Below, one piece after another: positions 43,699 to 63,333 of a stretch of 64,000 bases of DNA; position 1 is the first letter of the stretch; each line of letters starts with the position of its first letter. The position numbers and the translations under genes are program-made. The notes below the pieces were generated by a model. The model was not told where the DNA came from, ran no database searches, and worked only from the letters and a program-made list of their open reading frames with translations. The stretch is from Allosphingosinicella sp. (GTDB taxonomy: Bacteria; Pseudomonadota; Alphaproteobacteria; Sphingomonadales; Sphingomonadaceae), in the NCBI GenBank assembly GCA_036399655.1, contig DASWMS010000058.1:19043-83042 (forward strand), read 5' to 3'.

Positions 43699-44631
43699 TT
43701 ACGCGCCGGGCACCCCGAGCTCGCGCGCAGCGCCGCGCAGGCGTTGCTGGGCGGCCGCGTCGCCATTGAAGGCCGCCACGCCCGTGCGCAGCGCCTCCGC
43801 CGCACGCTGCGGCTCGCCAAGCATCATCCGGGAACGCATCAGCATGATCCAGCCGTCGGCATCGCGCGGGTTGGTGCCGAGGCGCGCCGCGAGGCGGTCG
43901 ACCATGCCGCGGGCCATTTCGTTCTGCCGGCTCGGCGGAATGGCGCGTGCCGCTTCGAGCTGCTCGCGGGTCGGGCCGGGAATGCCCGCGGTTGCGGTCG
44001 AGGGTGCGGGCGCGGCGGGGAGGCGGCCCGCCAGCGCGATGCCGTTCGCCGCGGCGATCCGCTCGGCGGCCTCGCGGACCTGAGGAACCCACGGCGCGGC
44101 TGCGGGGGCGGTGCGCAGAAGCGCGAGGAGATCGTCGACGGCGCCGCGATGGTCGCCCCTCATGTCGCGCATCGTGGCGAGATAATAGCGCGCCTGCGGG
44201 TGGCCGGGCTCGATCTCGAGCGCGCGGCGGAACAGCCGCTCGGCCTCCGGCGGCGGGTTCCCGCGAGACGTGAGGACCAGCGACTCGGCAAGATAGCCGA
44301 GGTAATCGGCTTTCTCGGGTCTCAGCTCCATCGCGCGGCGGAAGGCGCGTTCGGCGCCTGCCGCGTCGCCGGTTTCGCGAAGGAGAAAGCCGAGGCTGAA
44401 CCAGCCTTCGTCATTGTCCGGATCCTGCCGCAGCCGCTGCTGCAGGCCCGCAATGGTCTCCTCGACGCTCGCCGGCTGCTGCGCGTTCGAAGGCGCCGCT
44501 TCGTTCGCGCTCTCGCCGCCGCCGCTCGAGCGGACGATCGCGGTGCCGACCGCCACCAGCGCGATCAGCCCCGCCGCGGCGAGGGCGAGGGTCGCGGCGC
44601 CCGGGCGGGCGGTCTTGTTCGTGTCCGGCAT
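43699..44631 (-). CDS. Membrane-anchored TPR protein, CcmI/CycH-like
   Basis: One TM; LQQRLRQDPDNDEGW, TPR repeats, MVDRLAARL..NPRDADGWIMLMRS.MMLG. Confidence 0.8.
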   Translation of the reverse strand: MPDTNKTARPGAATLALAAAGLIALVAVGTAIVRSSGGGESANEAAPSNAQQPASVEETIAGLQQRLRQDPDNDEGWFSLGFLLRETGDAAGAERAFRRAMELRPEKADYLGYLAESLVLTSRGNPPPEAERLFRRALEIEPGHPQARYYLATMRDMRGDHRGAVDDLLALLRTAPAAAPWVPQVREAAERIAAANGIALAGRLPAAPAPSTATAGIPGPTREQLEAARAIPPSRQNEMARGMVDRLAARLGTNPRDADGWIMLMRSRMMLGEPQRAAEALRTGVAAFNGDAAAQQRLRGAARELGVPGA

Positions 44632-44750
44632 GGCGCGGATCATCGCGGCAAAAAGATCGAGGTCAAGTCTGGCGCCGCCGCCGCCTGCTGCTAGACTGCG
44701 CCGCCGGGGACTACGCACGCGGGGGCTGCGTAGACAGGGGGCCGGCGGCT

Positions 44751-47291
44751 GTGACGACTTCGTTCAAGATCGCGATCGTCGGCTCGGGTCCCGCGGGCCT
44801 CAGCGCCGCCGCGCGTGCCGCGCAGCTCGGCCTTTCCCACGTGCTGCTCGAAAAGACCGACCACCTTTCCGACACCATCTACAAATATCAGAAGGGCAAG
44901 CACGTCATGGCGACGCCGAGCCAGCTCGTGCTGCGCTCGGACATGGATTTCGAAGCCGGCAAGCGCGAGGCGATCCTCGGCACGTGGGACCGGATGGCCG
45001 CCGAGCACAAGATCAACGTGATGCTCAACGCCGAGGTTAAAGCGATCCGCGGCACAGGACCCGCCATCGAAGGCTCGGTCCAGAAGATCGTCTCGCGGGC
45101 GCGGGACGGCACGACGACGACCAAGGAAATCCAGCGCCACGCGCCGCCCTACGAGATCGTCATGACGAGCGGCGAGACGATCCTGGCCGAAAACGTCATC
45201 CTTGCCATCGGCACGCAGGGCAATCCGAACCTGATGCGCTGCGAAGGGGCGAGCCTGCCGCACGTCACCTACCAGCTCGACGATCCGTACGCGATTTTCG
45301 ACGAGCACATCCTCGTCGTCGGCACGGGCGATGCGGGGATCGAGAATGCGCGCGCGCTCGCCGAGGATCCGGCGCAGGGCAATGTCGTCACCATCCTCAA
45401 TCGCCAGCCTCGCTCGGCGAACGTGCGCGAAAGCTTCGCCACCGCCAAGGAGCCCAACGCCAAGGCGCTCATCCAGGACGACGCCGACGGCCGCCTCACC
45501 ATCCGCTACGAAACCGAGACCAAGGCGGTGGAGCCGGGCTGGGCAATCCTCAACACGCGCGACGGCGAGGAGCGCATCCGCTGCGACCGGATCATCGCCC
45601 GCATCGGCTCCGCGCCGCCGCGCGCCTTCGTCGAGAATTGCGGCATCGAGTTCGCGAGTTCGGACCGGACGGCCTTTCCCAAGCTTTCGCCGGTGTTTGA
45701 GACGACGGCGCCGGGCATCTTCGTGATCGGCGCGCTGGCCGGATACCCGCTGATCAAGCATTGCATGAACCAGGGCTACGACGTCGTCGAATTCGTCAAC
45801 GGCAACCGCGATCTGAAGCCCGCCGACGAGCCGATCCTGGAGCAGAAATTCGCAGGGCTCCCCGGCCGCCGCAGCGTCGACGAGTGGCTCGAATTCCTGC
45901 GCACCAGCGTCTCGATCCTGGAAGGCGTCTCTCCGCTTCAGATGCGCGAGTTCATGCTCGATTCGAAGGTCGAGCATTACCGCGCCGGCGAAGTCATTTT
46001 CGAGCGCAGCGACCCCGGCTCTTCCCTGTTCGGCATCGCCCAAGGCTCGGTCCTCGTCGAGGTGGACGCAAAAGACCGGAAGAAAGTCGTACCCATCGGC
46101 ACGGGCTCGATCTTCGGCGAGGTGGGACTCATCTCCGGCCGCCGCCGGGGCGCGACGGTGCGCGCCGGCGAGGATGCGATCGTCGTCGAAGTGTCGCGCC
46201 TCGCGGCGTTAAAGCTCATGTCGCAGGTCCCGGCCGCCAAGCGCGCGATCACCCGCATCTCGATCGAGCGGCAATTGCTGCAGATGTTCGGCTCAGGCCT
46301 GACGGCGGAAGACCTCACCGAAGTGATCGAAACGGCCAAGGTCGAATCGGTGAAAGCCGGCGAGGCAATCATCGAGGAAGGGGGCGAAGGCTACGACATC
46401 TTCGTCATCCGGCAGGGTTCGATGGTCGTCCAGAAGACGATCGGCGGGAAGCCGGTTTTCCTCTCCTATCTCCCGGCCGGCTCCTATGTCGGCGAAATGG
46501 CGCTGATCGACGGCGGGCGGCGCACCGCGACGGTGCGCGCCGCGGTCAAATCCGAAGTCATCCGCCTCGACGGCGACGCCTTCCGCCGCCTCCTTGGCGC
46601 CAAGCCCGATCTCCTCGCCAAGGCCGAGATCGACATGGCCGGGCGCAAGGCGATCAATGCGCTGATCGAGGAGAAGAAGCACGAATATGGCGGCGTCGTG
46701 GACATGTACTCGTCCATCGCCTCCTTCCTGGTCGAAAACGGCATCGGCGAAGCGACCGACGTGCTCCTCATCGACGAGAAACTCTGCGTCGGCTGCGACA
46801 ATTGCGAGAAGGCCTGCGCCGACAGCCACGAGGGCCTGTCCCGCCTCAACCGCGAGGCCGGCAAGACCTACGCCCACCTCCACGTGCCGACGTCATGCCG
46901 CCACTGCGAGCATCCGCACTGCATGGCCGATTGCCCGCCCAACGCGATCCACCGCGGCGCCGACGGCGAGGTCTTCATCGACGACACCTGCATCGGCTGC
47001 GGCAATTGCCAGAGGAACTGCCCCTACGGCGTCATTCGGATGGAAAAGGTGCCGCCGAGGAAGCCGCCGATGCTCTCCTGGCTGATGTTCGGCTTTGGCC
47101 CCGGCCCCGGGGAGCCGCCGAAGAAATGGACCGAGAAAAGGGTCAGCGCCGAGACTCCGAAGAAGGCGATCAAGTGCGACATGTGCGCCGGCATACGCGG
47201 CGGCCCGGCCTGCGTGCGCGCCTGCCCGACGGGCGCCGCGATCCGCGTCTCGCCGGAGCAGTTTCTTTCCGTGTCACGGCTGGGGGAGTGA
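44751..47291 (+). CDS. FAD/NAD(P)H oxidoreductase + 2 cNMP-binding domains + 4x[4Fe-4S] domain
   Basis: GSGPAGLSAA, VVGTGDAGIE, GIFVIG; FGEVGL..RGATVRA and VGEMAL..RTATVRA; CVGCDNCEKAC, CRHCEHPHCMADCP, CIGCGNCQRNCP, CDMC..PACVRACP. Confidence 0.9.
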   Translation: MTTSFKIAIVGSGPAGLSAAARAAQLGLSHVLLEKTDHLSDTIYKYQKGKHVMATPSQLVLRSDMDFEAGKREAILGTWDRMAAEHKINVMLNAEVKAIRGTGPAIEGSVQKIVSRARDGTTTTKEIQRHAPPYEIVMTSGETILAENVILAIGTQGNPNLMRCEGASLPHVTYQLDDPYAIFDEHILVVGTGDAGIENARALAEDPAQGNVVTILNRQPRSANVRESFATAKEPNAKALIQDDADGRLTIRYETETKAVEPGWAILNTRDGEERIRCDRIIARIGSAPPRAFVENCGIEFASSDRTAFPKLSPVFETTAPGIFVIGALAGYPLIKHCMNQGYDVVEFVNGNRDLKPADEPILEQKFAGLPGRRSVDEWLEFLRTSVSILEGVSPLQMREFMLDSKVEHYRAGEVIFERSDPGSSLFGIAQGSVLVEVDAKDRKKVVPIGTGSIFGEVGLISGRRRGATVRAGEDAIVVEVSRLAALKLMSQVPAAKRAITRISIERQLLQMFGSGLTAEDLTEVIETAKVESVKAGEAIIEEGGEGYDIFVIRQGSMVVQKTIGGKPVFLSYLPAGSYVGEMALIDGGRRTATVRAAVKSEVIRLDGDAFRRLLGAKPDLLAKAEIDMAGRKAINALIEEKKHEYGGVVDMYSSIASFLVENGIGEATDVLLIDEKLCVGCDNCEKACADSHEGLSRLNREAGKTYAHLHVPTSCRHCEHPHCMADCPPNAIHRGADGEVFIDDTCIGCGNCQRNCPYGVIRMEKVPPRKPPMLSWLMFGFGPGPGEPPKKWTEKRVSAETPKKAIKCDMCAGIRGGPACVRACPTGAAIRVSPEQFLSVSRLGE

Positions 47292-47315
47292 GCGCACCGG
47301 CGCCCGCTCCTCACC

Positions 47316-47409
47316 GTCATGCCGGACTTGATCCGGCATCCATGAACACCGGCCTGCGCGTTATCGCGCGGCCTCCTTGTTCATGGATCCTGACTTTCGT
47401 CAGGATGAC
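47316..47409. repeat. Composite REP-like element between oxidoreductase and membrane gene
   Basis: gtcatgccggacttgatccggcatccatgaaca...tgttcatggatcctgactttcgtcaggatgac. Confidence 0.8.
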
Positions 47410-47485
47410 TGCGGACTAGTTGTTGCGTCGGGGTAACAAACGCGCTTTGAGTAGGCGCGGGGCGACAGGGGACGACGCCGCGGCG

Positions 47486-48358
47486 ATGGCGACGGGGGCA
47501 GGCAGGACACATCTGGGGAGCGGCGGGACCCATGAGGGCTTCCTGCGGCACCGCCGATTCCGCTGGCTGAAGCTCGCCGTCCTGCTCTCGCTTATTACGA
47601 TCGCTGCCTACGCCCTTTCCGACGTCCAGCCGCGCCACAATGGCGGCTCCTGGCTCGGCTACACGCTGGGGACGATCGGCGCGCTGCTCATCCTCTGGCT
47701 GACCATGCTCGGCATCCGCAAGCGGGCGATGACCCGCGGGCGCTGGTCGCTCAAGTCATGGACCTCTGCGCACGTCTATCTCGGCCTGAGCCTCGTCGTG
47801 ATCGCGACGCTCCACACCGGTTTCCAGTTCGGCTGGAACGTCCACACGCTCGCTTATGCGCTGATGATGCTGGTGATCCTGTCGGGCGTGTACGGCATCT
47901 TCGTCTATGCGACGCTTCCCGATGCGCTGAGCGACAACCGCGCCGAGATGACACGGCCGCAGATGATCGACGCCGTCGCCAAGATCGACCAGCAGCTCCA
48001 GGCCGCCGCCCAGCCGCTTTCCGTCGAGGACGCCCGCCTCGTCACCTTGTCGCTGAAGGAGGATCCGTTCCGCGCCGGCCTCTACCGCCGCCTTTCGGGC
48101 AATCACGGCAATTGCCGCAACGGCAAGGCGCTGAAGCGGATGCGCCTGCGCGCCGCCGGGGCTTCGGGAGGGGAGAAAGAGGCGGCCGCCAGGGTCATCG
48201 AGCTGATGGAGCGCAAGGCCGCCGCGCTCGGGCGCATCCGGCGGCACCTCCGGATCAAGGCGCTGCTCGAAGTCTGGCTCTACGTCCACGTGCCGATCAC
48301 CTTCGCGACGATCGCCGCGCTCGCCGCGCACGTCGTCAGCGTCTTCTTCTACTGGTAG
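47486..48358 (+). CDS. Integral membrane protein, ferric-reductase/heme-b-like
   Basis: About 5-6 TM helices; two H-x13-H pairs (AHVYLG..TLHTG; VHVP..AAHVV). Confidence 0.75.
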   Translation: MATGAGRTHLGSGGTHEGFLRHRRFRWLKLAVLLSLITIAAYALSDVQPRHNGGSWLGYTLGTIGALLILWLTMLGIRKRAMTRGRWSLKSWTSAHVYLGLSLVVIATLHTGFQFGWNVHTLAYALMMLVILSGVYGIFVYATLPDALSDNRAEMTRPQMIDAVAKIDQQLQAAAQPLSVEDARLVTLSLKEDPFRAGLYRRLSGNHGNCRNGKALKRMRLRAAGASGGEKEAAARVIELMERKAAALGRIRRHLRIKALLEVWLYVHVPITFATIAALAAHVVSVFFYW

Positions 48359-48365
48359 CGGCGCG

Positions 48366-50213
48366 GTGGCCTATCTCCTCCGCACCGTCTCGCACAGCGC
48401 CGAAGGGCGCGAGATCGTCCGCACCGCCCGCATTGAAGGTGACGTGCTGACGGTCGGCCGCGATCCAGCCTCCAACGTCCACCTGACCGACCTTGCCGTC
48501 GCACTCCGCCACGCGACCGTCACCCGCACCTCGCCGACGCGGCTCGACGTCCTGGCGGGGGAGGGGCTTACCCTCGAATTGAGCGGCCGCAGCGTCGCTG
48601 GCGGCGCCATCCACCTCGGCCAGGGCGGCGACCTTCGCATCGGCAGCCACATCCTGCGCTTCATGCCGACGGAAGCCGGTGCGCCCGATATCGAGGTCAA
48701 TGTCGAGCGGGTGACGGAAGGCGAAACCGCGCTCGGCAAGGCCGACGAGCGCCGCTTTTCGCTCGTCTCGGTCATGCCCGGCAAGCGCCCGCTCGCCTGG
48801 CTCCTCGCCGCCGCCGTGCTGGTCGTCTTCCTCGCCTGGCCGGTGAACGAATTCTACCAGCGCCGCGAGCGCGAGCAGGCCGCCGCCGAGCGCTACAACC
48901 CAGACCGGATGTGGCTGAGCGGGCACCTCAGCGGCGTGCACAAGGGCCTCGAGAACAATTGCACCGCCTGTCACGCCGAGCCCTTCGTCGCGGTGCGCGA
49001 CACCGAATGCCAGGCCTGCCACACGCGGGTCCACGACCACGCCGACAAGGCGCGCCTCGCCCGCGCCCGGCCGGACCTCGACCGCTGGGGCCGCTTCCGC
49101 CTCGCCGTCCAGGAGACGTTCGGCGTGCCGGCGGGGCGCTGCGTCGACTGCCATACCGAGCATGAAGGCCCGCAGGAAATGACGCCGACGCCGCAGCGTT
49201 TCTGCAGCGACTGTCACACAGCGCTCACCGATCGCCTCCCCGACACGCGCCTCGGCAATGCCGGCGACTTCGGCACCGCCCATCCCGAATTCCAGCCCTC
49301 CGTGCTGATCCGCTGGGACAATGAAACGCCGGTGATGCAGCGCGTCTCGCTCGCGAACCGCCCGCCCGAGAATTCGAACCTGCGCTTCCCGCATGCGCTC
49401 CATCTTTCGCGCACCGGCGGCGTCGCGCAGATGGGGCGGCGGCTCGGCCGGCAGCACGGCTTCGGGGCAAGCCTCGTCTGCGCAGACTGCCACCTGCCGA
49501 CGCCGGACGGCACCCGCTTCCAGCCCGTCGACATGGAAGGCGACTGCGCCATGTGCCACGACCTCGCCTTCGACCGGGTCGGCGGCACCACGCGCACGCT
49601 CCGCCACGGCTCGCCCGAGCAGGTCGTCGCCGATCTTCGCGAATATTTCCGGGGGCGGGTTCCGCCACGGCCCTCGATCCTCGGCCCGGACGCGCGCCGC
49701 CGCCCGGGCGACGTCATGCAGATCCGCAACACGATCCAGTACGCCCGCGCCGTGCAGGGGGCCGGCTCGGCCGCCGACCAGGCGATCCGCGGTGTCTTCT
49801 CGCCGAACGGCGCCTGCTACGATTGCCACGTCGTCCAACTCCCGCCGCCCGGCAATTCGCACGCCTACCGGATCCGCCCCGTCGCCTTCCCGACGCGCTA
49901 CATGCAGCACGGCTGGTTCGATCACCGCCCGCATGCGCAGACCGAGTGCGCGACCTGCCACAATGCGGCGGGCTCGCAATCCGCCAACGACCTGCTCCTC
50001 CCGAGGCTGGAAACCTGCCGGACCTGCCACGGCGGCGAGAGCTCCGGCGAGGTTCCTTCCACCTGCGCCATGTGCCACGATTACCATATGGACGAAGGCA
50101 CGCCCGCCATGCTGCTGCGCCAGCGCGTCCGCGGCCGGCGGTGGGAAACGACCACCATCCCCGTCACGCCGCAGCCCGCTGCAGGCATGCCTCCGAGGAG
50201 GGCCCCGCGTTGA
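48366..50213 (+). CDS. FHA-like domain + TM helix + decaheme c-type cytochrome
   Basis: TVGRD..ALRHA; TM LAWLLAAAVLVVFLAWP; 10 CxxCH (CTACH, CQACH, CVDCH, CSDCH, CADCH, CAMCH, CYDCH, CATCH, CRTCH, CAMCH). Confidence 0.9.
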   Translation: MAYLLRTVSHSAEGREIVRTARIEGDVLTVGRDPASNVHLTDLAVALRHATVTRTSPTRLDVLAGEGLTLELSGRSVAGGAIHLGQGGDLRIGSHILRFMPTEAGAPDIEVNVERVTEGETALGKADERRFSLVSVMPGKRPLAWLLAAAVLVVFLAWPVNEFYQRREREQAAAERYNPDRMWLSGHLSGVHKGLENNCTACHAEPFVAVRDTECQACHTRVHDHADKARLARARPDLDRWGRFRLAVQETFGVPAGRCVDCHTEHEGPQEMTPTPQRFCSDCHTALTDRLPDTRLGNAGDFGTAHPEFQPSVLIRWDNETPVMQRVSLANRPPENSNLRFPHALHLSRTGGVAQMGRRLGRQHGFGASLVCADCHLPTPDGTRFQPVDMEGDCAMCHDLAFDRVGGTTRTLRHGSPEQVVADLREYFRGRVPPRPSILGPDARRRPGDVMQIRNTIQYARAVQGAGSAADQAIRGVFSPNGACYDCHVVQLPPPGNSHAYRIRPVAFPTRYMQHGWFDHRPHAQTECATCHNAAGSQSANDLLLPRLETCRTCHGGESSGEVPSTCAMCHDYHMDEGTPAMLLRQRVRGRRWETTTIPVTPQPAAGMPPRRAPR

Positions 50214-51082
50214 CCGACCAGCGCTTCCTGATCGCCCAGATCACCGACGTCCACCTCGGTTTCGACCAGGGGAATCCCGACGAATATAACCGCCAGCGGC
50301 TCGACCGCACCTTGCGCACGCTGATGGAGATGCAGCCGCGCCCGGACATGCTGCTCATCACAGGCGACCTTGCCGAGGAAGGCGACGACAGCGACTCCTA
50401 CGCGCGGCTCAAGGAGGCGATCGCGCCGCTGCCATTTCCCGTGCACATGGCAATGGGCAATCACGACAGCCGCGGCCCGTTCCTCGCCGCCTTTCCCGGG
50501 ACCGGCCACGCCGACGGCTTCATCCAATATGCGATCGAGGACGCGCCGCTGCGTATCCTCATGCTCGATACGCTGGAGGAAGGGCGGCATGGCGGCGGCT
50601 TCTGCGAAGTGCGCGCCGCCTGGCTCGCCGCGCGTCTCGCAGAAGCGCCGGAGCGCCCCACGCTCATCGTCCTCCACCACCCGCCGATCGAAACGGGCCT
50701 GAGCTGGATGACCGAGGACCCGGACGCCGCCTGGGTGCAGCGCCTGCGCGCCGTGATCGAGGCTCACACGAACATTCTCGCGATGATCGGCGGTCATCTC
50801 CACCGGCCGGTCATCACCGGCTGGGCGGGAACGATTCTGGCCGTCTGCCCGTCGACGGCGCCGCAGGTCGCGCTCGATCTCGCGCCGATCGATCCCGAGC
50901 GCCCGGACGGCCGCGCGATGATCGTGGCCGACCATCCCGCTTTCGCGCTGCACCTCTGGAACGGCCGCCAGCTCGTCACCCATTTCGACACGGCCGAGGA
51001 CCACAATGTCCTCGCGAGCTACACCCCGAAGCTCCAGCCGCTCGTGCGCCTGCTCACCGACGAGAGGAACAACCCCTCCTGA
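50210..51082 (+). CDS. Metallophosphoesterase, CpdA/Icc/GpdQ-like phosphodiesterase
   Basis: TTG overlaps upstream stop; QITDVH, TGDL, GNHD, HHPP, GHLH. Confidence 0.88.
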   Translation: MTDQRFLIAQITDVHLGFDQGNPDEYNRQRLDRTLRTLMEMQPRPDMLLITGDLAEEGDDSDSYARLKEAIAPLPFPVHMAMGNHDSRGPFLAAFPGTGHADGFIQYAIEDAPLRILMLDTLEEGRHGGGFCEVRAAWLAARLAEAPERPTLIVLHHPPIETGLSWMTEDPDAAWVQRLRAVIEAHTNILAMIGGHLHRPVITGWAGTILAVCPSTAPQVALDLAPIDPERPDGRAMIVADHPAFALHLWNGRQLVTHFDTAEDHNVLASYTPKLQPLVRLLTDERNNPS

Positions 51083-51103
51083 ACGACGGGCTGGCCGAGC
51101 TCT

Positions 51104-51367
51104 TCAGTTGGTCTTGATCCAGCTTCGAACGGCGGGCTGCATCCCGGCCTGCGGGTCGCCGGAGAGCTTCGCCACCACATAGTGGAACGTTCCTTCGACG
51201 GAGACGTGATGCTCGCCGAAATGAATGTCGGTGAACGGCCCGAGGGAGGAGCGGACGTAGGTGACCAGTTCGGTATTGATCGCGATGTTTCCGGGCTGGC
51301 CCCCGCGTTTCAATACGATGAGCGGCACCGGCGAAGCTCCCTGATCTGCATCAATTCCGGTTACCAC
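51104..51367 (-). CDS. Small hypothetical protein (FlbD-like pattern)
   Basis: LIVLKRGG....IAINTELVTYV; VSVEG....VVAKL. Confidence 0.5.
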   Translation of the reverse strand: MVTGIDADQGASPVPLIVLKRGGQPGNIAINTELVTYVRSSLGPFTDIHFGEHHVSVEGTFHYVVAKLSGDPQAGMQPAVRSWIKTN

Positions 51368-51385
51368 CCGCGGCTTAAGCGAAGG

Positions 51386-51895
51386 TTACGGTTGGAGCCG
51401 CGCGAGGATCGCCTCGACGCCCGCTTTCACGCCCGCATCGGGAGCGTGGGCGCTCATGCCGGGCAGGATCTCCATTCGGATGATCTGCGCGGCCGTTTCG
51501 TCCGGAAGCGCCTGCCTGAGACCGTCGCCGACTGCAATTCGCACGCGCCGGTCGTCCATGGCGAAGAGCAGGATGACACCGTCGTCGTGCCCGCGCCGGC
51601 CGATGCCCCAGCGGTTGCCGAGATCGCGGGTATAGTCGGCAATGCCGCGGCCGTTCGTGGTCCGGACCGTGACGAGGATGAACTGGTGCCCCGTCCGCCG
51701 CTCGAAGCCGCGGAGGCGCTCCGCGATCCTGTGCTCGTCGGCGGCGAGGAGCATGCCGGCCGAGTCGACGACATAGGCCGGACGCTCGAGAGTGGAGCTG
51801 ACCGCCGCCCGCCCCGGCGCCTGCGCATTGCCGCCGTCGGCGGCGGGCGTGCAGGCCGCGGCGACTGCGAGCGCGGCGAACAGGACGCGCCTCAA
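51386..51895 (-). CDS. TPM-domain lipoprotein
   Basis: TTG overlaps upstream stop; AAAC lipobox; VVDSAGML, TGHQFILVT, WGIGRRGHDDGVILLFA..DRRVRIAVG.GL. Confidence 0.85.
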   Translation of the reverse strand: MRRVLFAALAVAAACTPAADGGNAQAPGRAAVSSTLERPAYVVDSAGMLLAADEHRIAERLRGFERRTGHQFILVTVRTTNGRGIADYTRDLGNRWGIGRRGHDDGVILLFAMDDRRVRIAVGDGLRQALPDETAAQIIRMEILPGMSAHAPDAGVKAGVEAILARLQP

Positions 51896-54800: not shown

Positions 54801-56142
54801 GCGTGAAGACGTGGCGGATCGGATGCCCGCGTTCGCGCATTGCGGCGTGATTTGTGTCCGTTGGAGCGTCGCTATGCTGCGCAGCATTTTGCGGCTCTGC
54901 GCTCGCAGTTTCCGGCCCGTGAGCGCCGCGCTCAGTCAGCCCTGAGATCGTCGGATCGACCGTCGCCGTCTGCCCGTCGCGCCCGTGCTCGGCATAAGCG
55001 AGGCTGTGCCGCGGCTCGCGGTCGTTGGCGTAGACGACATGGCAGCCCGAGCAGCCGGAGTGGCGATAATCGCCCGGCTGGTCGTTCGTCCCCATGAACC
55101 ACATGAAGGGATCGTTGAGCCGCGTCTTGTGGATGTTGAGCACGGGGATGGCGACGCGCAGCCCTGTGCCGGGTCCGCGGTTCGACTGGCGGATGTCGGG
55201 CCGCCCCGCTTCCTCCAGCCGCTGGATCGATCCCGAAGGAGAGGGGAGGCCGATCTCCGGAAATTGCGTCCCGATCGTCCGCCCGCCGCGCTCGAAGACG
55301 CGGAACACGTCGCCCGGCGGAATGACGTGCCAGGTCGGCAGCGGATAGAGTTCGGCGATCACGCCGCGCGCGCGCTGCTCCGGCGTGATCTCGCCCGGAA
55401 TCGTCCCCGGCGACTGGATGCGCGCCGGCTGGCCGGAGCGCGTATAGGCCTCGCCGAACAGATAATTCTTATAAGGGACGATGCCGTTATTGTAGGCGGC
55501 CCCGCCCCACAGCATCGCGCCCGTCGCCATGAGCGAGCGCTCGGCCGCTTCGATGATCTCGATATGGCAGGCGCCGCACGCTTCGCGCGCCGCGCGGTAA
55601 TCGGACGGGTTGTTGAAGCGCACGAACTCCGGCGATTCGATGTTGAGCAGGGTGTAGCTTTGCCGCGGGTTGGCGGAGGAGGGGAAGTGCCAGGCGGCCG
55701 GATAGCGCGGCAGCACGTGAGCGAGATCGCGCGCCGCCACATAAGCGGGATCGTTCGCGGCGAGGTTTCCCGCCGGCGCGGTGACCCGCGGATTGCCGCC
55801 GTGGCAATCGACGCAGCCGAGCACCACCGCGGGCGTCCGGTGCATCGTGTGCGAGTCGCTCCCCGTGTGGCACGACACGCAGCCCGAGCTCTGCGCTTCC
55901 GCCGCCACCGGGTCCTGCGTCCGCGGCGCCGGCGCCGCGCGCACGAGGCTGTAATCCCGCGCGACCGCCTTCTCCTTTTCGGACGCACCGGCGGGCCCGG
56001 CCAGCATCCCCGCCAACTCCGTCATTCCCGCGAAAGCGGGAATCCAGGCCCAGCCTTTCCACCCGCTTCGGCGCCCCGCGGAAACGCTCGCTGGATTCCC
56101 GCTTTCGCGGGAATGACGGCGGAGGGCGAACAGGCGCCGCAT
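51892..56142 (-). CDS. Giant decaheme c-type cytochrome with C-terminal LVIVD repeats (1416 aa)
   Basis: ATG coupled to upstream TGA (TGATG); 10 CxxCH (CVSCH, CVDCH, CGACH, CSGCH, CMVCH, CADCH, CKDCH, CFTCH, CAGCH, CSDCH); about 6 repeats like YAYVAGGRDGLVILDITNP. Confidence 0.88.
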   Translation of the reverse strand: MRRLFALRRHSRESGNPASVSAGRRSGWKGWAWIPAFAGMTELAGMLAGPAGASEKEKAVARDYSLVRAAPAPRTQDPVAAEAQSSGCVSCHTGSDSHTMHRTPAVVLGCVDCHGGNPRVTAPAGNLAANDPAYVAARDLAHVLPRYPAAWHFPSSANPRQSYTLLNIESPEFVRFNNPSDYRAAREACGACHIEIIEAAERSLMATGAMLWGGAAYNNGIVPYKNYLFGEAYTRSGQPARIQSPGTIPGEITPEQRARGVIAELYPLPTWHVIPPGDVFRVFERGGRTIGTQFPEIGLPSPSGSIQRLEEAGRPDIRQSNRGPGTGLRVAIPVLNIHKTRLNDPFMWFMGTNDQPGDYRHSGCSGCHVVYANDREPRHSLAYAEHGRDGQTATVDPTISGLTERGAHGPETASAEPQNAAQHSDAPTDTNHAAMRERGHPIRHVFTRAIPTSQCMVCHMHQPNIFLNSYLGYTMWDYESDADLMWPGPENRLPARNAEEEARFRQQRYPTAAETLEVLNRNPEGAAPRGLWAETDFLREVYDRVNPLARHTQFADYHGHGWNFRAIFRRDREGNLVDEDGQRIPPGDPNTFRRENEGLFVPPGTNPGRAVHMMDIHAERGMQCADCHFSRDSHGTGFIYGEVANAIEISCKDCHGTARAFANLRTSGPAAPPNGTNLELIRNEDGRRRFEWMQDDAGRRVLIQRSIVDPQIEWVVSQVRDSVDRDLPPCGPASQGMSTGPCFNELSARSKLMSREGADTGRFVFGAGVADDALAHPDDEMACFTCHLSWTTSCAGCHLPIEANWRTTSHRYDGEETRNFATYNPQVAREDMFQLGRHMTTRGNIIAPIRSTSALILSSTNINRERIYVQQPPISASGFSSQAFAPHFPHTVRRTETKTCSDCHVSAANDNNAIMAQLLLQGTNFVNFVGMHSWVGLNSGFEAVRVTEWDEPQAVIGSYLQRMAYPDYYRMHVERNRRELVNWTRGRTFDRNRSGETRPLEEFRNVVQGTDGAVRCLQQRGEYMFVAEGSGGFRVYDVANIGNKGTSERIVTAPFSSMGQDTRVASRNATCMALPTNQPIAPDRNRAMAATTRPQPDGTTTSLLAENQEQGFHPIYDYAVVTDAEEGLILVDVDTLADADPRNNFIRRATFTAGGTAWNEGGVLAGARHITLAGTVAYIAADAGLVVVDLNEPLAPRHVTTIPLRDARASAIQFRYLWVTSAEGVQLIDVTDLRAPRLIPEATHRMADARRLYLARTYAYVAGGRDGLVILDITNPERPAAGPAVAWPAGQAPDAQDVIVGSTNASLFAYVADGLNGFKLFQLTSPESQPNFYGFSPRPVPELIAWARTPSPALALSKGLDRDRGVDETGNQIAVFGRLGSRPFTRSEMERLFLNRRGLPYRVTDRGSLADWVPAR
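56019..56119. repeat. REP-like element in frame within N-terminus of giant cytochrome
   Basis: Same family as 2767-2859; translates RHSRESGNP...WIPAFAGMT. Confidence 0.85.
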
Positions 56143-58160
56143 CAGTAAGTCACGATCGCGTTCAGGAGCACGGAATAGTATCGGTCGTGCCGGGGCTGGT
56201 TGGCGAACAGGTCGCGAAAGCCGGTGCCGGGCTGCAGCGCCGCCGCCGAGGCGCGGAAGACGAGGTTCTGAGTCATGCGCGGCCGCCAGATCGCCGCCGC
56301 CGACACGTCGAAGCCGATGTCGTTGCGGATGGTCCCCTGCATCCGCAGCGCCTCCATCGTGCCCGTCCGCGCGAACCAGAGGTGGTTCAAGTTCGCCGAC
56401 AGCCGGAAGGTCGGCGTGATGTCGAAGTCCGCGCCGGCCCCCAAGAGGATCGTTCCCGGATTGACGAAGTTCGACTGCCCCTGCTCCTTGGAGGAGCGCA
56501 GCGAATTCAGGATGCCGTTGCGCCCGCTGAGGACGATCGCCCGCCCGCCGCCGGCAAACGGGATGGACTGGCGGATCCAATAGCTCGTGTCGGCGCCTGC
56601 GAAGATCGGGTTCTCGAAGATCGAATCGAACCCGCTTTCGACATTGTCGTAAGGATCGCCGTCCCCGCTCGCGAACAGGGCGGCCCCGCGCACCCTGATC
56701 CAGTTCATGTCGTAGCTCGGCTCCGCGGCGGCGAAGAAGCTCGTAATCCGCGCATTCTCGCCGGTGAAGATGTTCTTCCGGTTGTGCCCCAGCGCCGCAT
56801 AGGTCTGCGCCGAAAGGTTCACCCGCCCGATCCGCCCGTCGGCGGCATAGCCGACGTACAGGACGTCGTAATTGCGCCCGCGCAGGTTTCCGATCAGCGC
56901 CGGCCGCACCGGAAAGCCGTTGTCGTCCACCTCGACATCGCCGCGCTCGCGGTTGACGTTCAAGGTGACGCTCGCCTGGCTCGTCATGCCGACGAAGGGG
57001 AAATCCTGGCGGTAGACGTTCGCCGCCAGGATCCAGTCGCTCCGCGGCCATTGCAGGATGTTGTTGAGGCCGGAATTCGTGTCCTTTTCCAGCCGCCAGA
57101 TCGCCATGACATTGTACTGGAACCGGTTGTTGTCCCGATTGCCGAACAGGCGGACGCCGAGCTGGTTGTCGTTGAACAGGAAGCCGCGGAAATCGAACTG
57201 GAAGGGCTGGATGCCGACGCGGACCGAGTCGAAGTCGTAGCGGTCCGACACGTTGCGCAGATGGTCGTCGACGAACAGTTCCTGGACGCCGATCGCGTAA
57301 TCGAAGCGGTTGGTGCCCTTGGACGGCTCCACGAAGAGCACCCGCCGCTCCGGCACATCGACATAGTTGGCCTGCACCGCCAGGGTGACCCGATATTCGC
57401 GGTGCGGCGGCATGTAGGCGGTCGAGCCCTCGATCAGCGCGGCGCCGACGATGAACGTCTGGGCGAGGACCAGGCTCTCGCTGCGCCCGAAGACGTCGAG
57501 GCTTCCGGGACGCTGCGTCGTCTGCACGCCGACGGGGATCGGAAAGTTGCGCGGCTCGATCACCGTGTCCGAGACGGCGTTCGCGACCAGGAACCAGCCG
57601 TCGCCGTGGAGGCCGAGCGCGCGCGTCAGCCGGCAGCCGTAGCTGCGCGGCCGCTCCTCGCCGACGCAGAGCGGCCTGTCGCCCTTCAGCGTGTTCTGGT
57701 TGTAGGGATCGAACCAGCGTTCCCGCACCACGCCCAGCGACTCGATGAGCCGCCAGCGGTCCGGAACCGGAATCTGGTCGGTTGGAAACGCTTCGGGCGG
57801 CGGCGATCGGATTGCGCCCGGATTCTCCTGCACGACCGGATCGGGAAGCTCATGCTGCGGCGTTCCGGGGCGGCGTCGGCCTTCTTCGTCCGGCGTCTGC
57901 TCCTCCGGGCGCTCGGCGGGCGGCACCTGCCCGGGCCACCAGCCCGGCTCCTGCTGCGTCGGCGGCGTCGAGGGAGGCTGCGCCGCCTGAGCCCACACCG
58001 CGTCATTCCCGCGAAAGCGGGAATCCATGAACACCGCGTGCGCAAATCTTTCCCCGCCTGTGTTCATGGATGCCGGATCAAGTCCGGCATGACGGGGAAG
58101 GGCTGCACCGCCCGGATCGAGGGCGGCGGCGAGGTGGAGGAGCGGGCCTGCAACCTGCAC
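56142..58160 (-). CDS. Predicted outer-membrane beta-barrel protein
   Basis: GTG 2 nt after upstream stop; Pro/Glu-rich N-region, then amphipathic strand patterns; C-terminus YYSVLLNAIVTY ending in an aromatic residue. Confidence 0.72.
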   Translation of the reverse strand: MQVAGPLLHLAAALDPGGAALPRHAGLDPASMNTGGERFAHAVFMDSRFRGNDAVWAQAAQPPSTPPTQQEPGWWPGQVPPAERPEEQTPDEEGRRRPGTPQHELPDPVVQENPGAIRSPPPEAFPTDQIPVPDRWRLIESLGVVRERWFDPYNQNTLKGDRPLCVGEERPRSYGCRLTRALGLHGDGWFLVANAVSDTVIEPRNFPIPVGVQTTQRPGSLDVFGRSESLVLAQTFIVGAALIEGSTAYMPPHREYRVTLAVQANYVDVPERRVLFVEPSKGTNRFDYAIGVQELFVDDHLRNVSDRYDFDSVRVGIQPFQFDFRGFLFNDNQLGVRLFGNRDNNRFQYNVMAIWRLEKDTNSGLNNILQWPRSDWILAANVYRQDFPFVGMTSQASVTLNVNRERGDVEVDDNGFPVRPALIGNLRGRNYDVLYVGYAADGRIGRVNLSAQTYAALGHNRKNIFTGENARITSFFAAAEPSYDMNWIRVRGAALFASGDGDPYDNVESGFDSIFENPIFAGADTSYWIRQSIPFAGGGRAIVLSGRNGILNSLRSSKEQGQSNFVNPGTILLGAGADFDITPTFRLSANLNHLWFARTGTMEALRMQGTIRNDIGFDVSAAAIWRPRMTQNLVFRASAAALQPGTGFRDLFANQPRHDRYYSVLLNAIVTY
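58001..58094. repeat. Composite REP-like element in frame within beta-barrel N-terminus
   Basis: cgtcattcccgcgaaagcgggaatccatgaaca...tgttcatggatgccggatcaagtccggcatgacg; translates RHAGLDPAS...MDSRFRGND. Confidence 0.85.
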
Positions 58161-58162
58161 GC

Positions 58163-60118
58163 CTATCGCCCCTGGCAGACATTCTGGTCGTTCGATCCGA
58201 GGAACGGCGTGAACGGGCAGCCGACATAGCGCAGCCGCACCTGATCGTTGCCGACCCGGCCGAATATCTGGTCCGATCGGATTGCCGGATCGGCATTGTT
58301 GACGCTCGTCGTGCGCACGCCCGCATTGTGGATGCCGAGGAACGAGATCATGTCGTCCTGGTCGATGCCGTCGCCCGAGACGCCGAGTCCGCCGATGAGC
58401 TGGTTGCCGCGATAGACGGGGACCGAGCCCGGAAAGATCTGGATGCCGTTCGCAATCCGGTTCGTGCCGGGAAGGCCGGTGCACTGGCTCGGCGCGTCCG
58501 CGCCGCCGCCGAGGATGAAGCCGACATGGGCGCGCACGTCCTGCTCGATCAGCGCCGATTGCAGCCCGGTCGAGAAGGGGTTGAACTCGGCGATGCTGCG
58601 CGACAGCGGCCCCGGCGGGCGGCCGAGCTCGCCGTCCGGGAAATAAGGGCGGTGGATGTTGCCGATGGCGCGATCGGACCAGGCGGTCTGGCCGGTGAAG
58701 ATCGCGTTCGTGCCGAAGAAGGCGCGCGACGCGGCGACGAACTGCCGCACGTCGGGATCGGCGTGCATGTCGAGCTGCGCCGCCGCCATCGGGTGGCTGA
58801 AGTACATCGCCGTGCGCGCCTTTTGCAGCGACACGTCGATGCCGAAGATGGGCGCGTCGGGCGAGCGGACGATGCCGAGCACGGCACCGTTCGTGTCCAC
58901 CAGCGAGATCGTCACTTCCGCGCGGCTGTCGAGCGGGCGGCGGATCTGCGCCCGCGCTGCTGACATGATCCGGAACGCCTCTTCGAGCAAAGCCCGCGAC
59001 TCCGCTGCGGTGATCGGCTGCGGGATCGAGTCCAGCGCGGCGCGCACCGGGAAGCGGTTGGTGCCCCCGCCGTCGGAAAGGACGAACGCGTCGGGGTTCG
59101 AGAATTCCGCCAGCGTCGCCGCGCGGATGCCGGAGCCTTCGCTCCCGTAGGCGCGGCCCGCCTGCATGCCGAAACTGGGGTCGTAATAGCCGCGCACCGG
59201 AACGAGGCTGCCCGGGATCGAGCCGAAGGCCGGCGCGCTCCCGCCCTTGAGGTCGTTCGCCTCGACGTCGCTGTAGCGCAGCAATGTGCCGTCCACGCTG
59301 ATCCGCTCTGCGCGAATGCCTTCGGGCGCTTCGAAGCCGCGCGTCGCGGCGAGCGCGATCGCTTCCTCGTCGTCCTTGTCGGTGTCGCGCACTTCGGGAT
59401 CGAAGCCGTAGACCCCGTCCGCCATGATCCCGACGCCGCCGATCAGGACTCCGTTCCGGTAGAGCGGGAAGCCTCCGGGATCGGCGGCCAGGCCGAGCGG
59501 CGAGCGCTTCGGCCCGATGAAGGCGCTGCCGCCGCCGACGCCGTTATAGCGGGTGTTGAGGTCCGAGCAGGGAAGCTGGCTGAACTGCACGCCGAACAAA
59601 GGCCCGCTTTCCAGCCCGCGCGTGGCGGCCGACGGCGGGAAATGTTCCTGCACGATCATGCTCGCCGTGCGCGTCGAAAAGGCATTGCCGCCCGAGGAGA
59701 GATAGGCGCCGGTCACCGCCTTGGCGATCGCCCCCGCCACCGCGCCCGGCACGTCGATGCCCTGGAGATCGTTCATGCTCCCGTTCGGGGCGTTCGGCAC
59801 CCGGAGCTGCTGGTTGGCCCCGGTCATTGAAAAGACGGCAAGCACGTTGCCGACCCGGTCGACCACAGCGATGTTGGCGGGCCGCCCGCGCGCCGCCGCT
59901 TCGCCGGCCGCATTGGCGATGACCTGCTGGACGTCGGCGACGCTCAGCGCTTCGGGGGCCGGCACCGAATAGAGCCTGGCGGCCGGCGGCGGGTTCGGCG
60001 GGGGAGGGGGCGAGGGGGGTGCCTCGCCGCCGCCGCCTCCGCCCCCTCCGCCGCCGCCTCCCCCGCACGAAGCTAGGAGCAGGGCCGCGATGGCGAGGGC
60101 GGAGGCGGCGCCGCGCAT
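58163..60118 (-). CDS. Lipoprotein with two GlcG/HbpS-like heme-binding domains
   Basis: Lipobox LASC, Gly13/Pro linker; IAVVDRVGNVL..AIAKA.T, ISLVDTNG..SLQKARTA, GGFPLY..IGGVG, GSVPVY..IGGLGVSG. Confidence 0.82.
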   Translation of the reverse strand: MRGAASALAIAALLLASCGGGGGGGGGGGGGEAPPSPPPPPNPPPAARLYSVPAPEALSVADVQQVIANAAGEAAARGRPANIAVVDRVGNVLAVFSMTGANQQLRVPNAPNGSMNDLQGIDVPGAVAGAIAKAVTGAYLSSGGNAFSTRTASMIVQEHFPPSAATRGLESGPLFGVQFSQLPCSDLNTRYNGVGGGSAFIGPKRSPLGLAADPGGFPLYRNGVLIGGVGIMADGVYGFDPEVRDTDKDDEEAIALAATRGFEAPEGIRAERISVDGTLLRYSDVEANDLKGGSAPAFGSIPGSLVPVRGYYDPSFGMQAGRAYGSEGSGIRAATLAEFSNPDAFVLSDGGGTNRFPVRAALDSIPQPITAAESRALLEEAFRIMSAARAQIRRPLDSRAEVTISLVDTNGAVLGIVRSPDAPIFGIDVSLQKARTAMYFSHPMAAAQLDMHADPDVRQFVAASRAFFGTNAIFTGQTAWSDRAIGNIHRPYFPDGELGRPPGPLSRSIAEFNPFSTGLQSALIEQDVRAHVGFILGGGADAPSQCTGLPGTNRIANGIQIFPGSVPVYRGNQLIGGLGVSGDGIDQDDMISFLGIHNAGVRTTSVNNADPAIRSDQIFGRVGNDQVRLRYVGCPFTPFLGSNDQNVCQGR

Positions 60119-61512
60119 CAGCGCAATCTGCGGATCGCAGTGGCCGCCCGGCCGAGCGCGGCGCGGAAGACCCTCGGATCATATTCGTTGGGATCGCGCA
60201 CCGCCTGGTAGGCGACGTTGATGTCGGCCCGGATCGTATTCGCCCGCTCGGTGGTGACGGTACCGCCCGAGACGAGCGCGGAGAGCAATGTGTCGGTCGC
60301 CATCACCGCCTGCACGCTGCCGGCATAATCGGTGAAGCGCTCGGAGATGGCGCTGGTCGTGATCGCGTCGATGATCGCGAAGGTCTGCGCCGCGCCCATG
60401 GTGGCCGACCCGAAGGCGCTGGACAGTGCCCGCGCGGTTTCGCGCAGCGCCGCCGCCGCACGCACCGCGCTGATCCGGTCGCTGGCGACGGCGCGGTGGA
60501 ATGCGCGGCTGTCCCGCTCGAAGCGCGCCGCGATCTCGGGCGAGACGACCCGCGCCGCCGCGGCGAGCATGATCATGTTCTCGTCATTGTAGGGCGGCAT
60601 GCCGAGCGGGATCGGGCGGCCGGGATTGCCGATCGCGGTCGGCTCGAAAGCCGGATTGTCCGAGATGCGTCGGTGGCAGGAGTGGCAATCGAGGAAATAG
60701 AATTCCGGGAAGATGCCCTCCGTCCCGCGCTCCGACGACGCGAACAGGGTCAGCGACCGCTCCAGCGCCATCGCCTGGCCGACCGCCCAGGTCTGGACCG
60801 GGCTCGGTCGTCCCTTGCGCGCGGCGTAGTCGGCATCTTCGGTGTGGTGCGCCTGGAGGGTCGTGAACAGGTCGAGCTCGAATGCGATGCGCGGGTGGCC
60901 GGCCGCCATCATCCGGTGGTTGACGAACTGTCCCTCGTCGGCGCTTCCGAAGTGGCAGTCGAGGCAGACGCCCGCCCGCGCGCGCGGGTTCTCGAGCGGC
61001 GTCATGCCGCGCTGGACGTTGTTGGCGTGGGTTCCGCCGACCGCATAATGGCTCGCCAGCCAGCCGCCGGCCGGCCCGTGGCAGCCTTCGCAGCCCACCC
61101 CGTCCGTCACCTGGAACCTCGGCCCCCGCCGCGAGGGCGCGGCCGGCGTCGCGTGGCAGCCGACGCACATCTCCGCCCGGGTCGCGTCGCCGCCCGCAAG
61201 CCCCAGCCGCTGCGCGATTAGCCGCGAGCGCGGAGAAGCGAGCACCGCATGGGCGCGGCTGTGGGCGCCGGCGGGACTTGCCGGGTCCTGCCAGATCATG
61301 AGTTCGTCCTGGCGCACGACCGCGCCATTGCCTTCGCTGCGCCCGTGGCAGGTGGTCCCGCCGCAGCTCGCCGTGCCGACGAAGGCGCCGCTGCTCGCGG
61401 GCGCCGTGTTCTGCGCCTCGGCGGAGGGCACGCCGGCGAGGAACAGCACCAGCCCCGCCAGGGCGAGCCCCAGCGTGCCGAACCCGATCGCAACGTCGCG
61501 ATTTCGCCCCAT
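60118..61512 (-). CDS. Multiheme cytochrome, c554-like N-domain (4 CxxCH + 1 Cx4CH)
   Basis: Signal/TM; FVGTASCGGTTCH, CVGCH, GVGCEGCHGP, CLDCH, CHSCH; helical C-terminus. Confidence 0.85.
   Translation of the reverse strand: MGRNRDVAIGFGTLGLALAGLVLFLAGVPSAEAQNTAPASSGAFVGTASCGGTTCHGRSEGNGAVVRQDELMIWQDPASPAGAHSRAHAVLASPRSRLIAQRLGLAGGDATRAEMCVGCHATPAAPSRRGPRFQVTDGVGCEGCHGPAGGWLASHYAVGGTHANNVQRGMTPLENPRARAGVCLDCHFGSADEGQFVNHRMMAAGHPRIAFELDLFTTLQAHHTEDADYAARKGRPSPVQTWAVGQAMALERSLTLFASSERGTEGIFPEFYFLDCHSCHRRISDNPAFEPTAIGNPGRPIPLGMPPYNDENMIMLAAAARVVSPEIAARFERDSRAFHRAVASDRISAVRAAAALRETARALSSAFGSATMGAAQTFAIIDAITTSAISERFTDYAGSVQAVMATDTLLSALVSGGTVTTERANTIRADINVAYQAVRDPNEYDPRVFRAALGRAATAIRRLR

Positions 61513-61683: not shown

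Positions 61684-63333
<1,650 letters not shown>

Follow-up and report, generated by a model that had tools for sequence, protein, structure and literature searches.

We analysed a stretch of 64,000 nucleotides (nt) of Allosphingosinicella sp. (Sphingomonadaceae; assembly GCA_036399655.1, contig DASWMS010000058.1, forward-strand positions 19,043 to 83,042), hereafter called the window, which originates from a biocrust metagenome. Ten genes located at positions 43699-61512 of the window encode multiheme cytochromes, a flavoprotein with cyclic-nucleotide-binding (cNMP) and iron-sulfur (FeS) domains, a membrane protein, a barrel candidate, a lipoprotein and several smaller proteins (Table 1), most of which may form a chain that carries electrons from the cytoplasm towards the outer membrane. 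Gene calls confirmed the position given to each gene in a preliminary description of this sequence, and every gene of the cluster is an intact, full-length open reading frame (ORF).

Table 1. Genes of the cluster and their positions in the window
Gene product	Coordinates	Strand	Properties
CcmI-like TPR protein	44631..43699	-	N-terminal membrane anchor; divergent from flavoprotein gene
Flavo/cNMP/FeS protein	44751..47291	+	846 aa, cytoplasmic
Membrane protein	47486..48358 (alternative start 47420)	+	290 aa, inner membrane
FHA-decaheme cytochrome	48366..50213	+	615 aa, 10 CxxCH
Metallophosphoesterase	50210..51082	+	290 aa, TTG start, cytoplasmic
TPM-domain protein	51895..51386	-	169 aa
LVIVD decaheme cytochrome	56142..51892	-	1416 aa
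Barrel candidate	58160..56142	-	672 aa
HbpS/GlcG (DUF336) lipoprotein	60118..58163	-	651 aa
Pentaheme cytochrome	61512..60118	-	464 aa, periplasmic

The genes had been described as two tightly coupled convergent operons. This holds for the minus strand, where neighbours overlap by 1-4 nt or are spaced by 2 nt, and for the membrane protein, FHA-decaheme and phosphodiesterase genes of the plus strand, which are separated by 7 nt and overlap by 4 nt, respectively. It does not hold for the flavoprotein and membrane protein genes, a pair that is spaced by 129-195 nt and is without tight coupling. A scan for promoters and terminators returned nothing above chance level.

The count of 25 heme c motifs made earlier proved right, with 24 CxxCH motifs (ten in each decaheme protein and four in the pentaheme cytochrome) and one CX4CH motif (CGGTTCH) in the pentaheme cytochrome. 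Among orthologues recovered from fetched related loci, the motif count was the same in 51/51 FHA-decaheme and 59/59 pentaheme cytochromes. All 73 orthologues of the LVIVD cytochrome carried ten CxxCH motifs, 72 of them exactly and one with an extra CX4CH.

Conservation and core gene set

A scan of one genome per species recovered the LVIVD cytochrome in at least 598 species-level genomes, and the best 80 of these provided the related loci. These 80 are mostly Sphingomonadales with a few Caulobacteraceae, cultured strains being among them, so that the cluster, which had been thought unexpected in a sphingomonad, is common there. Cultured strains that were seen to carry the whole cluster include Sphingobium sp. 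R-21, Qipengyuania sp. DGS5-3, Erythrobacter cryptus DSM 12079, Sphingobium algorifonticola TLA-22, Sphingomonas caeni LB-2 and Novosphingobium profundi F72. In sequence databases, the LVIVD cytochrome accounts for at least 7785 clusters and the barrel for more than 7,700, none of which is functionally named.

Conservation follows two modules. The pentaheme, lipoprotein, barrel and LVIVD cytochrome genes (the outer module) were syntenic in 60 of the 61 loci with sufficient flank, and a barrel homologue lay upstream of the LVIVD cytochrome in 68/69 loci. The flavoprotein, membrane protein and FHA-decaheme genes (the inner-membrane, or IM, module) adjoined the outer module in 48 of the 63 loci with sufficient flank, where they were accompanied by the phosphodiesterase in 46 loci and by the TPR gene in 43.

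The decisive observation came from two metagenome-assembled genomes (MAGs) of distant lineages, one of Lysobacteraceae (locus L084) and one of Rhodospirillaceae (L085), in which core genes that are 31-53% identical to those of the window form a single co-directional operon. The order of this operon is flavoprotein, membrane protein, FHA-decaheme cytochrome, HbpS-like lipoprotein, barrel and LVIVD cytochrome; the contig of L085 ends within the barrel gene. Because of these single operons, the two convergent operons of the window are best read as one system, as the preliminary description had proposed and as their frequent adjacency also suggests, and a chance neighbourhood of the two was considered and rejected. 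Neither locus carries the pentaheme, phosphodiesterase or TPR genes. Consequently, the core looks like a set of six genes, to which the other three would have been joined as accessories of the arrangement seen in Sphingomonadales and Caulobacteraceae.

The TPM gene, whose product matches Pfam TPM_phosphatase, adjoins the LVIVD cytochrome gene, is translationally coupled to it and had been counted as part of the system. No match to it was found in the 80 related loci. The closest relative of the window cluster (L081) has a TPM gene in the same slot (14173-14670 of that locus), yet the encoded protein is only 44% identical when its neighbours are 83-98% identical, and the nucleotide alignment breaks at window positions 51424-51888, just inside the gene ends. 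The gene looks like a replaced or fast-evolving cassette, a variable passenger, and we rejected it as a part of the system.

Other genes surround the cluster. A thiamine-diphosphate (ThDP) enzyme resembling acetolactate synthase is encoded at 61684-63333 (+), divergent from the pentaheme gene. Across many cluster-bearing Sphingomonadales loci, some of them without the IM module, the enzyme is conserved at 78-87% identity, at variable distance and orientation relative to the pentaheme gene; there is a second paralogue at 12702-14366 (-). At 6-10 kb upstream of the cluster are genes for a type II/IV secretion ATPase-family protein (34573-35748, -) and a TonB-dependent receptor (35975-38407, +). 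Farther away are a 658-aa ORF at 6400-8376 (+) that fuses protein-L-isoaspartate O-methyltransferase and erythromycin-esterase-family domains, and an IS1595-family transposase (ISXO2-like) at 9827-10732 (+), where local G+C is 0.63-0.65 compared to about 0.68.

Predicted proteins of the two modules and their wider family

The flavoprotein matches Pyr_redox_2/3, two cNMP_binding domains and Fer4 groups in Pfam and NCBIfam. Its flavin adenine dinucleotide (FAD)/NAD(P)H domain is of the thioredoxin-reductase type, and its C-terminal FeS domain contains four Cys groups, with DmsB, NrfC, HybA, ArrB and HmcB as best named relatives; the matches to HmcB and DsrO are weak. Across 48 sequences the Cys groups, the GxGxxG motifs and the cassette that binds phosphate, GEMALIDGGRRTATV, are all conserved; the orthologue of L081 shares 98% identity with the window protein, those of L084 and L085 49-50%. 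These domain matches and the four Cys groups visible in the sequence bear out the earlier reading of a protein with flavin, cNMP and 4x[4Fe-4S] parts. Neither this protein nor the phosphodiesterase has a signal peptide.

The membrane protein has about five hydrophobic segments, judged by eye, and four histidines (H96/H110 and H268/H282), already pointed out in the preliminary description, which do not vary among 10 sequences, the most distant of them 20% identical. The members of each pair are 14 residues apart and each pair lies on one helix. This signature makes the protein a predicted di-heme cytochrome b of the b561/ferric-reductase-domain clan. Matches to Ni_hydr_CYTB (9/10 members, E 3e-4), Ferric_reduct (4/10, E 7e-4) and DUF4405 were sub-threshold, and a profile of the family found no relative among PDB sequences.

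The decaheme cytochrome of the plus strand is composed of an FHA domain (residues ~1-100), one membrane helix (~141-160) and a 10-heme domain, whose C-terminus shows c7/GSU1996-type similarity. Taken alone, the window protein has a weak FHA domain. The domain is nevertheless established by a profile of 18 orthologues, which matches the FHA domains of OdhI/GarA (E 6.5e-7), and by matches of 18/18 orthologues to Pfam PF00498. Residues G31, R32 and H49 are invariant, and the canonical phosphothreonine-binding Ser is not conserved. Since the hydrophobic helix comes after the FHA domain, the latter would be cytoplasmic and the hemes periplasmic.

The presence of a phosphodiesterase-like gene on the strand that encodes the cNMP domains was also confirmed. 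The protein matches Pfam Metallophos and conserves the DxH, GD, GNHD, HHPP and GHxH motifs. Its NCBIfam scores lie below cut-off for SpdA (131.8 vs 400 bits) and CpdA (87.4 vs 225 bits), its best named relatives, and the protein can be described as class-III-type cyclic-nucleotide phosphodiesterase-like. The CcmI-like protein exceeds the cut-off of TPR_CcmH_CycH (PF23914; 75.9 bits vs 42) and is read as an accessory part, probably a chaperone dedicated to apocytochrome c.

Among proteins of the outer module, the LVIVD cytochrome is the presumed terminal redox protein. Its C-terminal LVIVD region (Pfam, E 2.8e-13) is presumed to be a beta-propeller. The sole named sequence relative of its heme region is the 12-heme ExtM of Geobacter (NCBIfam NF040943), which it matches in two stretches with 75.6 bits against a cut-off of 800 (E 2.6e-21), a score that indicates distant homology and not membership. 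A profile of the cytochrome found no solved relative among PDB sequences and did not match 5ze8. Some of its relatives, however faintly, match MtrC domain II/IV. Orthologues of both the cytochrome and the barrel have N-terminal Sec-type signal peptides or hydrophobic leaders, and no lipobox Cys or recognisable sorting signal was seen in the N-termini of the cytochrome orthologues that we inspected.

The barrel protein had no match in Pfam, NCBIfam or PDB sequences. Its AlphaFold2 model (predicted local distance difference test, pLDDT, 51; predicted template modelling score, pTM, 0.54) has 18 long strands at residues 189-671, and the best Foldseek matches of this model were AlgE (E 1e-12) and OccK/OprD porins, with probability 1.00; MtrB was not among the best. 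A Pro-rich linker and a conserved, probably periplasmic region (residues ~95-185) are located towards the N-terminus, and the C-terminal residue is a nearly invariant Tyr. The signal peptide, the 18 modelled strands and the C-terminal aromatic residue make the protein a candidate outer-membrane beta-barrel. The barrel proposed before is thus upheld by a low-confidence model, but as an AlgE/OprD-like structure and not as an MtrB-type sheath.

The lipoprotein has a lipobox (L-A-S-C) with a conserved Cys, a Gly/Pro-rich tether and three stretches that are HbpS-like in Pfam; its nearest solved relatives are EfgA, a PduO-associated domain and NahX. The pentaheme cytochrome matches Pfam Cytochrome_C554, cytochrome c554 in the PDB (E 4e-4) and, at E 0.08, T. 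tepidum c552 (5ze8). Its C-terminal half is helical and heme-free.

The IM module belongs to a wider family. At E <=1e-30, 506 representatives of the cNMP-FeS half of the flavoprotein were found, in both fused and split forms. In metagenome loci an IM unit recurs in which a cNMP-FeS protein is accompanied by a member of the same membrane protein family and by a multiheme cytochrome that is anchored in the membrane, has 3 to 15 hemes and often includes an FHA domain. In deeply diverged loci (L129, L145, L155 and others) a cNMP-FeS protein, membrane protein and FHA-multiheme cytochrome are combined with an outer set whose LVIVD cytochrome is 43-45%, barrel 36% and HbpS-like protein 27% identical to that of the window. 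Other units have other outer sets. In locus L119 the outer set comprises two multiheme proteins, one with 9 hemes and the other with 14 hemes and an MtrC-type domain, together with a barrel-like ORF. Locus L127 encodes a pentaheme cytochrome that has a lipobox-like N-terminus and is related to T. tepidum c552 (PDB 5ze8, E 9e-8), together with a 17-heme protein, an FHA-FNR-Fer2 flavoprotein, an FHA-multiheme cytochrome and a barrel-like ORF whose last residue is Phe. No homology to the window barrel was detected in the barrel-like ORFs of L119 (517 aa) and L127 (514 aa; hhalign probability 1.5%). Loci L129 and L127 have the IM unit and the 17-heme protein in common, and L129 carries the LVIVD-cytochrome set instead of the outer set of L127.

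These loci show the predicted IM module to be a reusable unit that is paired with different outer modules, some Ptd-like and others of classic porin-cytochrome appearance. Since sister IM units carry porin-cytochrome sets at that place, the LVIVD cytochrome, barrel and HbpS-like lipoprotein would stand in the place of an outer-membrane terminal module. This analogy provides the best indirect support for a terminal, outer-membrane-associated role of the set.

Among the diverged relatives, FHA domains were attached to FNR-Fer2 and Pyr_redox flavoproteins, to stand-alone proteins and to multiheme cytochromes, twice in one case (examples are found at L127 5655-8609, L129 6951-8666 and 15989-18397, and L119 12296-14191). 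Their distribution suggests that FHA-mediated assembly or phosphothreonine control may be a hallmark of such electron-transfer systems. The contigs inspected for the context of split cNMP-FeS forms were mostly decayed, insertion-sequence (IS)-rich or very short. In two IS-rich metagenome contigs (L083 and L086) the flavoprotein is split into FAD and cNMP-FeS parts, and transposases directly after it take the place of the membrane protein and cytochrome; both are apparently decayed copies of the system.

Proposed electron path and alternative readings

We propose that the flavoprotein would take electrons from NAD(P)H through its FAD and then through its four [4Fe-4S] clusters, and that they would cross the cytoplasmic membrane by way of the two hemes b of the membrane protein and reach the ten hemes c of the membrane-anchored decaheme cytochrome in the periplasm. 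From there they would pass, in the window cluster through the five hemes of the pentaheme cytochrome, to the ten hemes of the LVIVD cytochrome at the outer membrane, which would work together with the 18-strand outer-membrane barrel and the HbpS-like lipoprotein. The barrel would act as a channel or docking site, either for a substrate or for a partner protein segment. Cyclic nucleotide bound to the cNMP domains would make electron flow conditional, the co-transcribed phosphodiesterase would remove the signal, and the cytoplasmic FHA domain would dock or regulate the complex. Gating is plausible because the cNMP domains are placed between the FAD and FeS domains and one of them has a canonical phosphate-binding cassette.

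The cytoplasm-to-periplasm part of this path fits the domain content and predicted topology of the proteins. Flow would be outward and, because the quinone pool is bypassed, it would not conserve energy. An outward direction is favoured since the cluster holds no energy-coupling part, quinones are bypassed and the reduction of NAD(P)+ by external donors would need energy. Gene content, the conservation of motifs, synteny and the fusion of the operons are direct observations; we infer cofactor loading, the direction of flow, cNMP gating, the location of the LVIVD cytochrome and the nature of its substrate. An outward chain to an extracytoplasmic acceptor, in which the barrel offers a channel or docking site instead of an MtrB-type sheath, stands in our judgement at about even chances.

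Several points weigh against this path. The barrel model is of low confidence, and that of the heme region of the LVIVD cytochrome gave no usable fold (pLDDT 31 for 966 aa, from a 32-row alignment in which every row shares 75% or more identity with the query). A search for RNA runs that contain the region returned none. Outward flow is deduced from thermodynamics and from the lack of an energy-coupling part. Cyclic-nucleotide binding and the specificity of the phosphodiesterase, plausible as they are, are predictions, and the phosphodiesterase is absent from the operons of the gammaproteobacterial and Rhodospirillaceae MAGs. Furthermore, another donor may serve the outer module as well, since 15/63 loci have no IM module within 10 kb. 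Finally, export of the LVIVD cytochrome, and the system with it, may be impaired in this strain, in which a repeat element occupies part of the signal-peptide coding region.

The main alternative for the outer module is a true trans-outer-membrane conduit of the Mtr/Pcc type, in which the barrel would pass a heme segment or a partner and the LVIVD decaheme cytochrome would sit on the surface and reduce Fe(III)/Mn oxides, humics or O2, the last to superoxide. The barrel gene is immediately upstream of the LVIVD cytochrome gene and coupled to it, a barrel homologue is also upstream in nearly all related loci, and LVIVD repeats typically occur in proteins of the cell surface. Related IM modules adjoin classic porin-cytochrome triads in L119 and L127, and the exchange of outer sets between L129 and L127 around a shared IM module and 17-heme protein points the same way. 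However, MtrB folds into 26 strands around MtrA and the barrel candidate models as an 18-stranded AlgE/OprD-like protein; the cytochrome lacks a lipobox or recognisable sorting signal; its low heme density (one heme per ~85 residues of heme region) is more enzyme- than wire-like; and no homology to Mtr/Pcc proteins reaches curated thresholds. We therefore consider such a conduit possible but rather unlikely. Of the continuous wire to a surface decaheme that had been drawn in the preliminary description, the stretch from cytoplasm to periplasm is consistent with our results, but the sheath and the surface location gain no support from the 18 modelled strands and from a Sec signal without lipobox. 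Still less can be said for inward flow, in which the outer module would draw electrons from extracytoplasmic Fe(II), Mn(II), reduced humics or S or N compounds and the IM module would pass them to NAD(P)+. Multiheme and porin sets such as Mto, Pio and Cyc2 do act in Fe(II) oxidation, flavoproteins of the FNR type are reversible, and the pentaheme cytochrome resembles cytochrome c554, the acceptor from hydroxylamine oxidoreductase. Yet the reduction of NAD(P)+ (about -320 mV) by such donors needs energy, none of the parts encoded by the cluster is proton-motive or ion-coupled, and record titles identify most carriers as aerobic heterotrophs. This reading is very improbable.

A different argument concerns this organism alone and leaves the family as a whole unaffected, namely that the cluster is decaying and makes no working system here. 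It arises from two insertions at the 5' ends of two core genes. The first is an element of ~100 nt (56019..56119) that resembles miniature inverted-repeat transposable elements or repetitive extragenic palindromes (MITE/REP-like), has inverted 25-mers at 56021-56045 and 56093-56117 and lies in frame within the signal-peptide coding part of the LVIVD cytochrome gene. The second (57990..58118; 129 nt, or 43 codons) lies in frame just past the hydrophobic core of the barrel signal peptide. Both have in common the terminal 25-mer GGATTCCCGCTTTCGCGGGAATGAC, of which the window holds five copies, further ones being located at 2767-2791 and 2835-2859. The insertions are real: in the source run the elements reach ~200 times the word depth of their flanks, and contigs assembled independently from run X1 extend from unique flanks into the elements, the barrel element being reached from both sides. 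The signal peptide of the cytochrome is uninterrupted in the 96%-identical P0001, and the barrel insertion is delimited by alignment with L081 and P0122/P0123. The hydrophobic core of the cytochrome signal scores 1.2 here compared to 2.6-3.0 in orthologues (Kyte-Doolittle). Against decay, both insertions are in frame and stop-free and leave full-length ORFs, the proteins of the cluster retain their high identity to those of the closest relative and all heme motifs, and the hydrophobic core of the barrel signal is unchanged. Loss of function in this strain appears improbable.

If the proposed path is correct, its implications reach beyond this strain. Carriers include Sphingomonadales, Caulobacteraceae, single Lysobacteraceae and Rhodospirillaceae MAG loci and unassigned marine metagenome contigs. 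What is understood of extracellular or periplasmic electron export comes mainly from metal-reducing anaerobes, in which the path diverges from the quinone pool; in the cluster described here, it is proposed to start directly from NAD(P)H. The cluster stands out for its built-in cyclic-nucleotide and FHA modules and for its occurrence in hundreds of aerobic soil and marine species, several of them cultured. We put forward, as a broader and decidedly doubtful proposition, that many aerobic heterotrophs carry an NAD(P)H-powered, quinone-independent machine that exports electrons to the outer membrane or surface and is gated by second messengers through its cNMP domains and by phosphothreonine through FHA. 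Such a machine could explain the redox chemistry of aerobes outside the cytoplasm and could be the missing enzymatic basis of reductive Fe/Mn acquisition or of the widespread production of extracellular superoxide by heterotrophs. A function, once found, would annotate thousands of proteins now called hypothetical and would assign the ptd-type clusters of ocean oxygen-deficient zones their first function.

Relation to known systems

The MtrCAB and Pcc systems of Shewanella and Geobacter share with the window cluster a barrel gene beside multiheme cytochromes, a periplasmic relay and the working model of electron export. The components themselves differ. The best match to the MtrA/DmsE decaheme family (TIGR03508) was the pentaheme cytochrome, with 18.3 bits against 192.2. 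In place of a sheath of the MtrB/PioB type, which has at least 26 strands, we found the 18-strand barrel of the low-confidence model, and in place of a surface decaheme lipoprotein (MtrC/OmcA) a cytochrome whose orthologues have Sec-type signal peptides without lipobox. Input differs as well: electrons would enter the window system from NAD(P)H through the flavo-FeS protein and heme b, whereas MtrCAB/Pcc-type export is fed by quinol dehydrogenases such as CymA, ImcH and CbcL. No protein of the cluster reached curated scores for the Mtr, Dms, Nrf or Ext families, in agreement with the earlier statement that these are not recognisable Mtr, Pio, Mto, Nrf or Pcc orthologues.

Electron donor, membrane di-heme b and periplasmic acceptor follow one another in the transmembrane redox complexes of Hmc/Tmc type of sulfate reducers, in NOX and ferric-reductase-domain proteins and in MsrQ-type proteins, which thus present the same logic of a cytoplasmic FeS or flavin donor. 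Ferric-reductase-domain proteins also have two His pairs on two helices, as does the window membrane protein. The similarities are, however, sub-threshold or weak and the partners are different.

The extHIJKLMNOPQS cluster of Geobacter likewise unites a porin-like protein, multiheme cytochromes, a cytochrome b and an FeS protein (PMC5877670). Its porin-like protein ExtI is needed for selenite and tellurite reduction, and a porin that admits soluble substrate to periplasmic cytochromes is an idea discussed for this system (PMC5877670). In contrast to the window cluster, ext occurs in anaerobes and is reported there with neither a cNMP or FHA part nor NAD(P)H input, and no beta-propeller, rhodanese or selenoprotein counterpart to the window cluster is reported in that description (PMC5877670).

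The closest published relative of the IM module is the ptdABCDEFG cluster of marine Alphaproteobacteria (order UBA11136) and other phyla, which was presented as previously undescribed and of unknown function (bioRxiv 10.1101/2023.11.21.568154). It comprises an FAD/NAD(P) oxidoreductase, a cNMP-binding 4Fe-4S protein, a ferric-reductase-like membrane protein, a periplasmic decaheme cytochrome, a porin and further multiheme proteins (bioRxiv 10.1101/2023.11.21.568154). Its inner-module parts list, with the cNMP 4Fe-4S protein, the ferric-reductase-like membrane protein and the periplasmic decaheme cytochrome, is the same as that of the window. Homology to Ptd proteins was examined by way of the metagenome locus L127, a look-alike that fits the published ptd description, and not through Ptd sequences; it gave 27% identity for the cNMP-FeS protein (E 2e-30) and 23% for the membrane protein (E 5e-8).

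Literature searches that combined LVIVD with multiheme or cytochrome, or Sphingomonadales with multiheme cytochrome, returned no description of a set of LVIVD decaheme cytochrome, barrel and HbpS-like protein. The system may accordingly be new in this respect, as had been thought possible, but the related ptdABCDEFG cluster has already been named in a 2023-24 preprint (bioRxiv 10.1101/2023.11.21.568154). The two differ in several respects. FAD, cNMP and FeS domains are fused in one protein in the window, with an FAD domain of the thioredoxin-reductase type, whereas that of the Ptd-like L127 is of the FNR type (FAD_binding_6/NAD_binding_1/Fer2). The terminal cytochrome is the LVIVD decaheme protein in the former, and in ptd the pentaheme PtdA, which is related to T. 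tepidum c552, has a beta-sandwich and is encoded beside the porin PtdB. The window further adds an HbpS-like lipoprotein, a phosphodiesterase and a CcmI-like gene. Judged by gene content and sequence comparison, the window cluster is distinct from ptd in its fused flavoprotein, terminal cytochrome, barrel and lipoprotein.

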